This document shows, piece by piece, positions 29,944 through 37,152 of a stretch of 64,000 bases of DNA. Source of the DNA: a phage. The stretch's first letter is position 1, and each line of letters opens with the position of its first letter. The position numbers and the translations under genes were made by a program. Below the pieces are notes generated by a model, which searched no databases, had not been told where the DNA came from, and saw only the letters and a list, made by a program, of their open reading frames with translations. The stretch lies in the NCBI GenBank assembly GCA_018027755.1, contig GCA_018027755.1_4098.1, one strand, 5' to 3'.

Positions 29944-30282
29944 ATGGAACAATATTTTGAATTAATAAACAAAGTATCATTTTATGTAGTATCTTTGGTT
30001 TGGGTGTATTATATGTTTTGCTATATTATTGCATTCTTCCGATATACTACTTTATATGAACGTATCTACTATGATGCCCCAATTTCATTCTTGATGTTTT
30101 GTGCATGTACGTGGGGAATATTAGAAGTACTGATATGTGGGTATAGTACTGATGAATTAAATCTGGTATCGGTGTTGACTGGGTTTTCATTTGTTGTTAT
30201 GATAGCTGCCGTTCCAGTATGGTTGTTCTTTGGACTAGTTCATCGCATTGATATATGGCGTTCTAATATCCCTGAAAAGTAA
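29944..30282 (+). CDS. small multi-TM membrane protein, family M
   Basis: ~112 aa, 3 TM segments, basic C-terminal tail ..RSNIPEK. Confidence 0.55.
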   Translation: MEQYFELINKVSFYVVSLVWVYYMFCYIIAFFRYTTLYERIYYDAPISFLMFCACTWGILEVLICGYSTDELNLVSVLTGFSFVVMIAAVPVWLFFGLVHRIDIWRSNIPEK

Positions 30283-30285
30283 GGA

Positions 30286-30633
30286 TTGGAAATGATTTAT
30301 TACACTAACATGTTTGCCTATGCTGTTGCTTGCATTTACATTGTTTACTTCTTATTCGGTGGAGTACTGTGCTTCTTTAAGTACAAAACGTTGTTCAACC
30401 GAATGTACCCAAATCATCCAATTGTAGTTGTACTTTTGATTCTTTCAGTTTCTCAAATAATCGTTGAAACTACAATGGGTATCAGTAGTGTACATTATAG
30501 TTTTGGCACTATAGTAATTATTACTATGCTTATTGCATACATTTTAGTACTTGGATATGGTATCTTTGGTAATATTGGTATGAAAATGTATCATCGAATT
30601 AAAACATTACGTGATAATCTACCGGAGCGTTGA
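30286..30633 (+). CDS. small multi-TM membrane protein, family M
   Basis: 3 TM segments; tail ..LRDNLPER. Confidence 0.55.
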   Translation: MEMIYYTNMFAYAVACIYIVYFLFGGVLCFFKYKTLFNRMYPNHPIVVVLLILSVSQIIVETTMGISSVHYSFGTIVIITMLIAYILVLGYGIFGNIGMKMYHRIKTLRDNLPER

Positions 30634-30634
30634 T

Positions 30635-30979
30635 ATGTATAATTTGAACCTAATCTCATATATTATAACAACACTGTTTACATTCTATGCCTTTGTTGGT
30701 ATAATCCTACTGTACTTTAAATTTTATAAAGTGTTTAACCGTTTCTATCCTTCAATGGAGAATGAGTTTTTCTTTGTGTTGTACGTAGGTTACACATTAA
30801 TGGCTACATGTTTCACTGTAGCCGATGGTGTCATCGGCATTAAAACTGATTCCCCAAATGGTAGTACGCTGGTTGCATTTATTCTTACTGGATTCCTTGC
30901 AACTTATATTGCCTTCATTACAACATGGTCAGTGGTTGAATTTCTCTTGCGACTACGAAAGAATATGCCGAATCGATAG
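30635..30979 (+). CDS. small multi-TM membrane protein, family M
   Basis: 3 TM segments; tail ..LRKNMPNR. Confidence 0.55.
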   Translation: MYNLNLISYIITTLFTFYAFVGIILLYFKFYKVFNRFYPSMENEFFFVLYVGYTLMATCFTVADGVIGIKTDSPNGSTLVAFILTGFLATYIAFITTWSVVEFLLRLRKNMPNR

Positions 30980-30988
30980 GAGACATAT

Positions 30989-31243
30989 ATGTTTGCGTTG
31001 CGTAATAAAAACACTAAAGAATTATTATGTATTGATACCGTATGGGATTGTGCGGGATCAACTACAGTTCTTGAAGAAGGAACTGGATATTGCGTGTTTG
31101 TTGTTCATGATAGGAATGAACTCGAATTATTACTTGCTGAGTTCAATGCTGGTGGTAATCCTAACAGTACTGAATACCCTGAGATTATCAATCCAGCACC
31201 ACCAGGCTCTTATGAAATTCTACAACTGTGGGAGTTGAAGTAA
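30989..31243 (+). CDS. hypothetical protein
   Basis: SD AGGAGACATAT upstream. Confidence 0.55.
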   Translation: MFALRNKNTKELLCIDTVWDCAGSTTVLEEGTGYCVFVVHDRNELELLLAEFNAGGNPNSTEYPEIINPAPPGSYEILQLWELK

Positions 31244-31623
31244 TGCGTCAAATGCACAAAGTAACCGAGCTAAACAAGCGTCTGGTTAAACAATCAATGT
31301 TCGAGGATAAAGAGTCTTATTATAACTTTAAACGTGCTGTAGAGGCTGCTATCCACATTCAGAAGCTTAAAGAACGTGGTTGTATTATTCTGGAAAATGG
31401 GTCGGAAGTTGTAACGGATGACTTTAGTGTAGCGTTTGATGTTTCACCTGACGGGACGCTATCAATGCCCCGCTTAGGAACTGGAAACATGACTGTTTGG
31501 GTTGGCTTCACTATGGGGAATGTACCTGGTACTGTGTACGTAGATGATGCGGAATTGAAAGACAGTTTCAAAAACTTATCTTATCTTGAACCACAATACG
31601 CACATGAAATGAATTTATTTTGA
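31243..31623 (+). CDS. hypothetical protein
   Basis: Track ORF 31228..31623; internal ATG start overlapping previous stop. Confidence 0.5.
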   Translation: MRQMHKVTELNKRLVKQSMFEDKESYYNFKRAVEAAIHIQKLKERGCIILENGSEVVTDDFSVAFDVSPDGTLSMPRLGTGNMTVWVGFTMGNVPGTVYVDDAELKDSFKNLSYLEPQYAHEMNLF

Positions 31624-31624
31624 G

Positions 31625-35051: not shown

Positions 35052-35398
35052 TGTTTGAAGCTTATCTTGAGTTTTTAAGGAGTAGTTCAGTTGCACATTC
35101 ACTTGCAGGGATTATTCTAACAACTTATGTATCATTTTGGGTAGTTATGTTTCTAGGATGGTATTTTAAACGACAATTCTATAAACGTAATGGTGAAGAT
35201 TTTATGAATTCTGCCATTAATCAATCGTTGTTTGCATCAACATTGATTGCATGTATTGTAGCAACACTCACAGGAAAGGTACTACCAGCTTTTTCCGCAG
35301 TTTACGGCACACTTGGGATGATATGTTTAACTTTTATATTGACCATTAAAATTTGTTGTGTTATGATTGAACTTCGAAATAAGATACCGGAGGAATGA
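35051..35398 (+). CDS. small multi-TM membrane protein, family M
   Basis: 3 TM segments; tail ..ELRNKIPEE. Confidence 0.55.
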   Translation: MFEAYLEFLRSSSVAHSLAGIILTTYVSFWVVMFLGWYFKRQFYKRNGEDFMNSAINQSLFASTLIACIVATLTGKVLPAFSAVYGTLGMICLTFILTIKICCVMIELRNKIPEE

Positions 35399-35733
35399 TG
35401 GAGTACTTTATTGATTTACTGCCGTGGTATATGAAAGTTAGTACTTTGTACTATATTATTAGTGCTGGATTCTACTTTCTGATGTGGTTCTTTAAACGAC
35501 CAATTTCAGTATTCATCGCTGATAACATGCTGCAATTAAAATTACACGCATGGTTTGGTATGGCGATGATTATGCCTATTATTCACTACTCAATGATTAG
35601 TAGAGGTTTCCGTTCTAATGGTGAACCAATTGTATTAGTATTCTATTGGGGTTCAACTATTGCATATGTAAGTTTGTTGTTGTTCCCAGTCGTTCATAAG
35701 TTACGTGCTAAAGTTCCTGATGCGAGGTACTAA
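35395..35733 (+). CDS. small multi-TM membrane protein, family M
   Basis: 3 TM segments; tail ..KLRAKVPDARY. Confidence 0.55.
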   Translation: MMEYFIDLLPWYMKVSTLYYIISAGFYFLMWFFKRPISVFIADNMLQLKLHAWFGMAMIMPIIHYSMISRGFRSNGEPIVLVFYWGSTIAYVSLLLFPVVHKLRAKVPDARY

Positions 35734-36047
35734 TGGATATAGTAACATTGATTTACACGTTGTATTCATTCTATTTCATTATGTGTTGGGTTGGATTTTT
35801 ATTTGTACTCAAGATGTTTGATTATGTTGAAAAACAGATAAAAGAATTTTGTATTCCTTTTATCGGTTCAACCATTATTAGTGTTTCTTGTGTGTATTTT
35901 TTGGTTTTTGATCCACCAGATAACACTGCAATGATTGACTTGATGTTACTACCAACAACTGTTACTTTTTTATGTAGTCTGATGCCGCCGATTAGCCGTG
36001 GACTAACAGAATTTAGACGCAATCAAAAGCGTAAACGAGGGATGTAA
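35733..36047 (+). CDS. small multi-TM membrane protein, family M
   Basis: 3 TM segments; tail ..RRNQKRKRGM. Confidence 0.55.
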   Translation: MDIVTLIYTLYSFYFIMCWVGFLFVLKMFDYVEKQIKEFCIPFIGSTIISVSCVYFLVFDPPDNTAMIDLMLLPTTVTFLCSLMPPISRGLTEFRRNQKRKRGM

Positions 36048-36415
36048 TGGAAATTGCTCTTATTATCTTAACTGCTATGCTGTTTATTAGTACTGTGGTT
36101 ATAATTGGTAAATTCTTTTGTGTATCATTTTTAGAAACGGTATACGATGAAATTGCTGATGATTATGAATTACAAGCCGGATTTTTCATTACGTATTGGC
36201 TTAGTTTATTTTGTCTAGTCATTGCTTGGATTTTACATATCTTTAAATGGGGTATGGTAGACGGTGATCCTATTATGGCAATTATTGTTCTAGTGTTTGG
36301 TATCCTTGGTGGTGCAGTGCATAATCTAATGGTTATCTGGCAAACTGTTCAATATGTTTTGGTTCCCTATTTCGAAAAGATGCACAGTACAATTAAAAAA
36401 CGTAAACGAGGTTAG
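36047..36415 (+). CDS. small multi-TM membrane protein, family M
   Basis: 3 TM segments; tail ..TIKKRKRG. Confidence 0.55.
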   Translation: MEIALIILTAMLFISTVVIIGKFFCVSFLETVYDEIADDYELQAGFFITYWLSLFCLVIAWILHIFKWGMVDGDPIMAIIVLVFGILGGAVHNLMVIWQTVQYVLVPYFEKMHSTIKKRKRG

Positions 36416-36416
36416 T

Positions 36417-36779
36417 ATGAACGGGATAGAATTATCTTTCGTTGGTCAATTACTAGTAATGGCGTATACATTTATCTTCTCACTGAATGCATTCGTGTGC
36501 ATTGGGAAGTACTTCCATAAGCGACCATTATCAAATATATATGATGTAATCCAAAAGAGATATAGTCCAGCATATACTGTGTTGGGTACAGTATTCAATT
36601 TTGGTTTTATTGTATTAATAATTGGACTGTTCACATCCTCTTTGAATACAATAACCTTCGGTCTTATGATATGTTCATTGGTATTAGCCGTAATTATATG
36701 TTGTTTAGTACTGCACCTTGTGGTACTATTGTATATAAAGATCTCTGAAATCCACCAACGTTTGGGTATGAGGAAATAA
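36417..36779 (+). CDS. small multi-TM membrane protein, family M
   Basis: Track ORF 36354..36779; internal ATG start; 3 TM segments. Confidence 0.5.
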   Translation: MNGIELSFVGQLLVMAYTFIFSLNAFVCIGKYFHKRPLSNIYDVIQKRYSPAYTVLGTVFNFGFIVLIIGLFTSSLNTITFGLMICSLVLAVIICCLVLHLVVLLYIKISEIHQRLGMRK

Positions 36780-36780
36780 T

Positions 36781-37152
36781 ATGAGTTACCGTGAGATATT
36801 TTCCATTATTTCAATTATTATGTTCAGTACTGGAACACTGGTATGGTTATTATACTTCTTCTGTATTAATCCAGTGTATAATATGTTATGTAATATTAAA
36901 TCAAGTGCCGGATATATCACTTTTATGGTCTTTATGGGATATTATTGTCTAAGCATTTTAGGTGTTGTTTTGGTTGTTATATTTGATGTGGGACCAAATA
37001 GTGATGGTATGGAAATACATGAATTAATAACCATGTTTGGATGTATGATACCAACAGCACTACTGTTTGTAGCTACTTGTAGTGGATTGATAAAATTATA
37101 TAATTATTTAAAATCCATTCATAATTCCATTCATAATAAGCGTATGTCATAA
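36781..37152 (+). CDS. small multi-TM membrane protein, family M
   Basis: 3 TM segments; tail ..HNKRMS. Confidence 0.55.
   Translation: MSYREIFSIISIIMFSTGTLVWLLYFFCINPVYNMLCNIKSSAGYITFMVFMGYYCLSILGVVLVVIFDVGPNSDGMEIHELITMFGCMIPTALLFVATCSGLIKLYNYLKSIHNSIHNKRMS

Follow-up and report, generated by a model that had tools for sequence, protein, structure and literature searches.

Small membrane proteins made early by phages mediate the exclusion of rival phages and the control of lysis. Two small inner-membrane proteins, T4 Imm and HK97 gp15, keep the DNA of superinfecting phages from entering the cell; Imm and gp15 have two transmembrane (TM) helices and Sp has one. In jumbo phages, a large share of the genome lies in small genes of no known function. 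The 64,000-nucleotide (nt) stretch of phage DNA analysed here (GenBank assembly GCA_018027755.1, contig GCA_018027755.1_4098.1), which we call the window, carries ten genes, m1 to m10, in two tandem blocks. Profile comparisons place their products in one family of small three-pass membrane proteins.

In architecture the family resembles class I holins of the lambda S105 type, which have the same length (~105-120 amino acids, aa), three TM helices, an external N-terminus and internal C-terminus (N-out/C-in) and a short, charged, mostly basic cytoplasmic C-terminus. It differs from them in having ten copies instead of one, in having no adjoining endolysin or spanin, and in lying behind sigma-70-like promoters among early-type genes. 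With T4 Imm and Sp and HK97 gp15 it would share, as a functional analogy, the nature of a small phage inner-membrane protein made early or by a resident phage. However, those proteins have another number of TM helices, show no detectable sequence similarity to the family and are encoded by single genes, not by a paralogous array of 10-12 genes. The kind is a familiar one, small early phage membrane proteins amplified in tandem. The proteins themselves are already present in databases, as several PHROGs groups (19285, 19454, 19046, 27396, 33258, 26405 and 27618) and as the 'membrane protein' entries GAP32_522-527. New here are the recognition that they form a single family of two subtypes, the constant place of the main array behind an NrdC.10-like gene, and the layout of promoters and operons.

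The ten genes and their relationship

The window comes from an Asteriusvirus. The flagged region is 96-98% identical in DNA to Asteriusvirus phages (vB_EcoM_CRJP21, phAPEC6, 121Q, PBECO4 and others), Escherichia jumbo phages of the RaK2-like group (121Q/PBECO4-type) with genomes of ~350 kb. The first-pass annotation had reported ten open reading frames (ORFs) of ~112-123 aa in two tandem blocks. All ten are present on the + strand, three at 29944-30979 and seven at 34713-37152. The upper length bound holds and the lower one does not, since m7 has 104 aa and the actual range is 104-123 aa. The last value in most lines below is the ratio of nonsynonymous to synonymous substitution rates (dN/dS).

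29944..30282, + strand: m1, 112 aa, subtype A; matches phrog_19285; dN/dS 0.18
30292..30633, + strand: m2, 113 aa from ATG, subtype A; dN/dS 0.14
30635..30979, + strand: m3, 114 aa from ATG, subtype A; dN/dS 0.30
34713..35051, + strand: m4, 112 aa, subtype A; dN/dS 0.19
35051..35398, + strand: m5, 115 aa, subtype A, start overlapping the m4 stop by 1 nt; dN/dS 0.34
35395..35733, + strand: m6, 112 aa, subtype A, ATGA overlap with m5
35733..36047, + strand: m7, 104 aa, closest to subtype B
36047..36415, + strand: m8, 122 aa, subtype B; dN/dS 0.10
36417..36779, + strand: m9, 120 aa from ATG, subtype B; dN/dS 0.38
36781..37152, + strand: m10, 123 aa, subtype B, last gene of the array; dN/dS 0.20

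Three starts required a choice. For m2 the ATG at 30292 is more likely than the TTG at 30286, for m3 the ATG at 30635 is more likely than the GTG at 30611, and for m9 the ATG at 36417 is the most likely start, the mechanical ORF start at 36354 implying a 62-nt overlap with m8. A Shine-Dalgarno sequence (GGAG, GAGG or AAGGA) lies 5-10 nt ahead of each ATG, and the starts chosen in this way agree with the annotation of 121Q and BF17. Gene junctions range from -4 to +9 nt, that is, overlaps of 1-4 nt or gaps of 1-9 nt, so the genes of each block are probably translationally coupled. When compared with BF17 (protein identity 63-92%), all ten genes have a dN/dS of 0.10-0.38, and flanking non-membrane genes have similar values. 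The ten ORFs are real genes under selection. The family hidden Markov model (HMM) detected no further member among the other ORFs of the window, small membrane ORFs included.

Pairwise BLAST gave good links only among m1, m2 and m3, and for this reason the comparison was made with orthologue-group profiles. Orthologues were taken from 121Q, BF17, A4, Turkey5, RaK2 and protein databases, one profile was built per group, and all profile pairs were compared by hhalign, using column-reversed profiles of matched composition as decoys. Members m1 to m6 form a chain linked at probabilities of 82-98% (m1-m2 97.8%, m1-m3 98.3%, m3-m4 92.9%, m3-m5 93.5%, m5-m6 95.9%, m4-m5 82.3%). A second cluster contains m8, m9 and m10 (m8-m10 90.7%, m8-m9 84.7%, m9-m10 47.9%), and m7, the member most weakly linked in the pairwise profile comparisons, joins it at 73%. 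The highest probability reached by a reversed decoy was 6.2%. The merged profiles of the two clusters, subtypes A and B, match each other at 83.7% (E = 8e-6) over 100 colinear columns, the decoy reaching 1.3%.

HMMs built from a 103-sequence family alignment minus one whole orthologue group recovered all ten members at 18-50 bits, compared with 8-15 bits for the best of 339 decoys, which were reversed family sequences or any other ORF of the window; the underlying alignment had been built with all sequences included. In this comparison m7 scored 29 bits and its best decoy 9 bits. The first-pass annotation had grouped the ten proteins as diverged in sequence and conserved in architecture, and had proposed profile-profile alignment as a check. 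The links described above bear this out and extend it, as homology can be demonstrated in the sequences too, beyond architecture alone. Judged by these profiles, all ten are homologous and constitute one ancient paralogous family.

It is hardly credible that there is no meaningful family, the ORFs being either unrelated hydrophobic proteins alike in composition or non-coding frames in an AT-rich genome: many member pairs are indeed insignificant by pairwise BLAST and TM proteins are prone to spurious profile matches, but real hhalign pairs at 83-98% stand against reversed decoys at no more than 6.2%, the leave-one-out scores exceed those of the decoys, the genes are under purifying selection, every one of them has a Shine-Dalgarno sequence, and the array is kept in three phage genera. 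The artefact reading was excluded on the basis of the decoy-controlled hhalign comparison, the leave-one-out HMMs and dN/dS.

All ten window proteins fit a common definition: a length of 100-130 aa, three TM helices, TM1 closing at its cytoplasmic end with an aromatic-Phe-basic/Cys motif, and a C-terminal motif [R/H]-x-[K/N]-[I/L]. Across the family, the hallmarks are a Phe and a basic residue ending TM1, followed by an aromatic-Asp motif, and a juxtamembrane C-tail of the form [R/H]-x-[K/N]-[I/L]-[P/x]. This Phe never varies in an alignment of 41 sequences, and at least 90% of the 103 sequences have it. In subtype A (m1-m6), TM1 ends in [W/Y/F]FFK[R/K] and the tail reads R-x-[K/N]-[I/L/M/V]-P-[E/D/N]. 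In subtype B (m7-m10), the corresponding motifs are G[K/F][F/L]F[C/V/H] and H-x-x-[I/L]-x-x-[K/R][K/R]. In short form these read WFFKR...R-x-K-I-P-E for A and GKFFCV...H-x-K-I-K-x-KR for B. The codons of the C-tail contain the Shine-Dalgarno sequence for the gene that follows; the tail motif is nevertheless retained in m3 and m10, each the last gene of its block.

Curated collections contain the family in pieces. Nine members match seven separate PHROGs groups of unknown function, those listed above, with E = 1e-51 to 1e-70, and m9 has no PHROG match. In all, the family is dispersed in databases over at least eight groups that look unrelated, none with an assigned function. No window member reaches a curated threshold in Pfam, NCBIfam or PADLOC, where the sub-threshold hits are to unrelated TM families. 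A Pfam scan of 103 members gave hits scattered over 57 unrelated TM families, with at most three members each. A single PADLOC hit to PycTM has E = 0.026, which is chance level. An HMM search of PDB sequences gave nothing below E = 0.009, the best match being a G-protein-coupled receptor fragment, and fold searches gave no link to a known protein. The literature searched on Asteriusvirus, phAPEC6, RaK2 transcriptomes, nrdC.10 and jumbo-phage exclusion contained no functional statement on these genes; the CBB paper goes no further than a count of 'conserved putative membrane proteins' (PMC5259590).

Topology, expression and distribution

Three hydrophobic segments were found in nine of the ten proteins by Kyte-Doolittle hydropathy, a strict threshold finding only TM3 of m6, and 91 of the 103 alignment sequences show exactly three hydrophobic peaks. 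AlphaFold2, run on m6 with the family alignment, modelled three long helices and, in loop 1, a short one (mean predicted local distance difference test score, pLDDT, 78; predicted template-modelling score, pTM, 0.57). The depositors of the GAP32 homologues annotated them with '3 transmembrane domains shown using TMHMM 2.0 and Phobius'. In the 91 three-peak sequences, the mean number of Lys plus Arg residues is 0.5 in the N-terminus, 3.3 in loop 1, 0.4 in loop 2 and 4.6 in the C-tail. According to the positive-inside rule, the N-terminus and loop 2 are thus predicted to be periplasmic, and loop 1 and the C-tail cytoplasmic (N-out/C-in), which would put both family hallmarks on the cytoplasmic face. 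By these predictions each member is a three-pass protein of the cytoplasmic membrane, 104-123 aa long, with a periplasmic N-terminus. The topology check proposed in the first-pass annotation returned a uniform result. Its description of three hydrophobic helices and a short basic C-terminal tail stands for the helices and for nine of the ten tails, which are net positive; in m5 the last nine residues, ELRNKIPEE, have a net charge of -1.

Conservation is uneven along the proteins. Variation is greatest in TM2, the periplasmic loop and TM3, which show 25-31% identity within diverged orthologue groups, compared with 41-44% in the N-terminus, TM1, loop 1 and the C-tail.

Each block has a sigma-70-like promoter in the gap ahead of its operon, and the block-1 operon is headed by a non-membrane gene:

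29595..29623, + strand: sigma-70-like promoter of block 1, TTGACA-17-TATTCT, in the gap ahead of the operon headed by the 93-aa gene; identical in 121Q
29660..29941, + strand: 93-aa non-membrane gene outside the family, its stop 2 nt before the m1 start; matches phrog_37917 (function unknown); dN/dS 0.10
34655..34683, + strand: sigma-70-like promoter of block 2, TTGACA-17-TACTAT, in the 67-nt gap before m4, followed by GGAG and ATG
37159..37182, no strand assigned: perfect 10-bp stem-loop directly after the array, with its T-run on the minus strand

The block-2 element is kept in 121Q, BF17 and Turkey5. Its spacer holds a hairpin, GTACTAC...GTAGTAC, whose arms are still complementary across phages despite changes on both. 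Of the 15 sigma-70-like sites that score highest on the + strand between 27.0 and 37.9 kb, seven lie between genes, in only 5% of the sequence (binomial P = 4.5e-6). The related phage PA5oct has no RNA polymerase of its own, and the host enzyme is likely its main transcriber according to its authors (PMC7318152). From the conserved promoters, the intergenic enrichment of strong sites, the likely reliance of PA5oct on the host polymerase and the early-type neighbouring genes, we infer that both operons are transcribed early by host RNA polymerase from sigma-70-type promoters. No transcript data for the RaK2-like lineage turned up in the literature searched. The stem-loop at 37159..37182 reads as a terminator for antisense or convergent transcription, by its sequence. 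A recurring intergenic layout was observed at 28893-28928, 33808-33843, 34655-34683 and, in A4 (L003), 2670-2705: a G+C-rich hairpin followed by a T-run, resembling a terminator, with the TTGAC -35 element of the promoter that follows either inside it or right beside it.

Scanned exhaustively with HMMER, 1.84 billion cluster representatives yielded no more than 79 clusters at E <= 1e-3, all of them 89-130 aa long, matched end to end and each assignable to one of ten subgroups. A word-indexed protein search returned close relatives only, the distant ones requiring the exhaustive scan. A search of IMG/VR for the m6-subgroup locus returned only 121Q and RaK2. Genomic context was sampled for a handful of the 79 clusters. 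The long contexts examined were all from RaK2-like phages, and several look-ups led only to contigs of 1-1.4 kb carrying short tandem runs of members. It seems that only RaK2-like jumbo phages (Asteriusvirus, Alcyoneusvirus, Mimasvirus and metagenomic relatives) carry the family, which is lineage-specific and old.

Copy numbers in the two array sites of these genomes, as block 1 plus main array, are the following:

Window: 3+7
121Q: 3+8, with an extra m4-like copy without counterpart in the window
BF17: 3+7
A4: 1+7
Turkey5: 3+8
RaK2: 0+8, in the 28-kb stretch examined
GAP32: six members (GAP32_522-527)
Metagenomic L007: about four members
Metagenomic L013: 11-12 members in a single run, six A types and then B types

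Block 1 is a second, separate site, present in Asteriusvirus genomes and possibly in L007. The extra m4-like copy of 121Q is 48% identical to m4. From Asteriusvirus to RaK2, most subtypes are matched one-to-one by an orthologue and the gene order is unchanged, and the A-before-B order is found even in the distant L013. The most conserved member, m6, is 38% identical to its RaK2 orthologue, and m10 orthologues in Klebsiella RaK2-type phages are ~39% identical. RaK2 has two m5-like genes, and no m9 orthologue was found in it. The array members of the window are 97-100% identical to those of 121Q. Compared with A4 or Turkey5 the identity of members is only 25-67%, whereas the neighbours g184, g58 and an 83-aa membrane protein retain 78-99%. 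Family members thus evolve faster than several neighbouring genes. Shortened variants occur in the database: P0030 (77 aa), P0032 (74 aa), P0034 (99 aa) and P0055 (101 aa).

The m7 orthologue of 121Q (L001, 12500-12815) is annotated as two genes, 228 and 229, and has one extra T in a six-T run. A single extra T can be a real frameshift or a sequencing error, and we set this apparent pseudogene aside as evidence of dispensability. In RaK2, an unannotated 42-aa ORF (MKPEQWIIDDMRAMRKIENKSYEEQAYLDLLQWYVKVIQSKE; L002, 11817-11945) lies immediately ahead of the first array gene. Its homologue in L007 is fused to the C-terminus of a weak three-TM member (10370-10816; 44%, E = 3e-12), a fusion suggesting that the array may have a small partner in the cytoplasm. 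No homologue of this ORF was found in the window.

In each of the RaK2-like lineages examined (the window, 121Q, BF17, A4, Turkey5, RaK2, GAP32, L007 and L013/L014), the main array directly follows a gene for an NrdC.10-like P-loop ATPase, with a gap of 10 nt or less in GAP32, L007 and L013:

33872..34645, + strand: NrdC.10-like P-loop ATPase, weak AAA_16 match, phrog_1250; context, outside the family

The ATPase is ~40% identical to the T4-type NrdC.10 found in ~1300 phage records. The window allele shares 95-98% identity with its Turkey5 and WPEC3 counterparts and only 59% with that of 121Q (and PBECO4), amid genes on both sides that are 96-100% identical to 121Q, so the whole allele was exchanged by recombination. 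With the ATPase at 59% and the array at 97-100%, the two are not in tight co-evolution. No such array lies beside nrdC.10 in RB69. An obligate pairing of ATPase and array was therefore rejected as a firm claim, as RB69/T4-type nrdC.10 occurs without the array and the allele was swapped independently of it.

Possible roles of the family

That the ten genes represent a genuine early membrane-protein family is, in our judgement, very likely. With low confidence, we favour a role as early inner-membrane factors of host takeover or exclusion. This preference stems from the inferred early expression, the divergence of the membrane and periplasmic half, the variable copy number, the truncated variants and the precedent of known exclusion proteins. 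Host RNA polymerase would transcribe both operons, and the proteins would be synthesized early and enter the inner membrane of the host, where each paralogue would act largely alone on a different membrane-located target. Their role would be an early takeover of the envelope that protects a long infection cycle, either as exclusion of other phages' DNA entry of the Imm/Sie type or as a similar form of protection at the membrane. Specificity would come from the variable TM2-loop-TM3 half, and the common function from the conserved cytoplasmic face.

Several points weigh against this proposal. None of the library and structure searches linked the family, in sequence or fold, to any characterised exclusion protein, and Pfam Imm_superinfect had no hit either to the window members at E <= 1 or to the 103 family members. 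Orthologues kept one-to-one and in the same order would suit an assembly of fixed subunits no less well. Some of the conservation in the C-tail may stem from the ribosome-binding site of the following gene, which lies within those codons. Besides, the early timing is read from promoter consensus only.

The main rival is a hetero-oligomeric complex, in which the paralogues would be subunits of one inner-membrane assembly (a channel, pore or scaffold) produced at fixed ratios through translational coupling of the genes, perhaps working together with the NrdC.10-like ATPase. We consider it unlikely, although it accounts well for the start/stop overlaps and 1-nt gaps throughout block 2, the orthology and gene order kept between Asteriusvirus and RaK2 (A then B even in L013), the cytoplasmic-face motifs common to all members, and the constant position of the main array directly after the ATPase gene. 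However, a fixed stoichiometry is difficult to reconcile with a membership that varies from about four in L007 and six in GAP32 to 11-12 in L013, and that in RaK2 lacks m9 and includes two m5-like genes. The extra m4 copy of 121Q is absent from the otherwise 97-100% identical window. Block 1 is 3.7 kb away, has its own promoter and ranges from no member (RaK2, 28-kb stretch) to three. Moreover, ATPase and array show no allele-specific co-evolution, and T4-type phages carry NrdC.10 without the array.

Somewhat less probable still is a role in counter-defence, by which early membrane proteins would neutralise membrane-embedded effectors or sensors of abortive infection, the paralogues having diversified against different host systems. 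The presumed early timing, the faster evolution than several neighbours, the variable copy number and the variable membrane-embedded half facing a conserved cytoplasmic side are all consistent with it. But neither PADLOC, with its chance-level PycTM hit, nor the other libraries showed any similarity, and one-to-one orthology maintained across phages of E. coli, Klebsiella and Cronobacter is a poor fit to sporadic accessory defence genes. The literature searches turned up no experimental precedent.

We regard it as improbable that the members set the time of lysis as holins or antiholins, even though size, three TM helices, N-out/C-in topology and a charged C-tail are the architecture of class I holins. 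The endolysin of RaK2-like phages, gp532 of 121Q, has an N-terminal TM domain, and no holin is named for the lineage (PMC5259590). One of the 103 family members has a sub-threshold match to Phage_holin_2 (E = 5.9e-4). Against this, no holin family of Pfam matches any window member even at E <= 1, and the scatter of Pfam hits contains no consistent holin match. The ten copies are divided between two operons of an early-type region, each with a sigma-70-like promoter, and the endolysin is ~300 genes away (in 121Q, the arrays are in genes 207-232 and the endolysin is gp532). Ten holins made early would, we reason, kill the host prematurely.

Finally, it is tempting, if quite speculative and the least probable of these roles, to see the members as membrane adaptors with interchangeable specificity, whose conserved cytoplasmic face docks one phage partner for the early takeover of host membrane proteins. 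The Phe-basic motif after TM1 and the R-x-K-I-P tail would serve as the docking handle, with the NrdC.10-like ATPase as the candidate partner, and each variable TM2-loop-TM3 half would grip a different host inner-membrane protein for extraction, inactivation or re-purposing. If true, phages would be seen to take over their hosts by a new principle, and the long-orphan NrdC.10 of T4 would gain a function. Any functional link to the ATPase would throw light on a conserved gene of the T4 superfamily.

Whatever the role, ~3.5 kb, or ~1% of the genome, is devoted to one family of tiny membrane proteins in at least three phage genera, and such retention implies that the family must pay its way. The RaK2-like group is under development for phage therapy. 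If the takeover or exclusion factors we favour do block co-infecting phages, they would have a bearing on cocktail design, and if they alter membrane physiology, on safety assessment. In place of eight disconnected 'hypothetical protein' groups, experimenters gain a defined family with two subtypes, near-invariant residues, operon boundaries and natural copy-number variants.

Genomic surroundings

The window has a G+C content of ~30-40%, and all genes between ~1 and 38 kb are on the + strand. The two blocks are surrounded by a kinase gene (early-type neighbours near the arrays include a T7-like kinase), small ORFs without known function and the NrdC.10-like ATPase gene; no endolysin or spanin gene adjoins them. 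The only tRNA gene of the window, a tRNA-Thr (anticodon TGT), is at 1519-1593.

Small membrane proteins seem to abound in the early-type region as a whole. Four small + strand ORFs (11606-12031, 21053-21679, 22129-22506 and 26473-26736) have 2-4 hydrophobic segments and are not matched by the family HMM. The 83-aa membrane protein mentioned above (32471-32722) is unrelated to the family, is 96-100% identical among Asteriusviruses, A4 and Turkey5 included, and matches no PHROG.

The interval between the blocks is itself variable. When 33376-34712 of the window is compared with 6785-11480 of 121Q (L001), six 121Q genes are absent from the window: 217 (denV endonuclease V), 218, 220, 221 (a 487-aa endonuclease), 222 and 224 (the extra m4-like member). 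Two phages that are ~97% identical therefore differ by several gene insertions or deletions in this interval.

Convergent to the membrane-protein array, twelve tandem paralogous genes of ~245-450 aa occupy the minus strand at 38540-52874. Relatives label them RCC1-like 'putative DNA condensation' proteins, and their L007 homologues have Pfam WD40_RLD/RCC1_2 hits. This set is a second, larger paralogous expansion beside the array.

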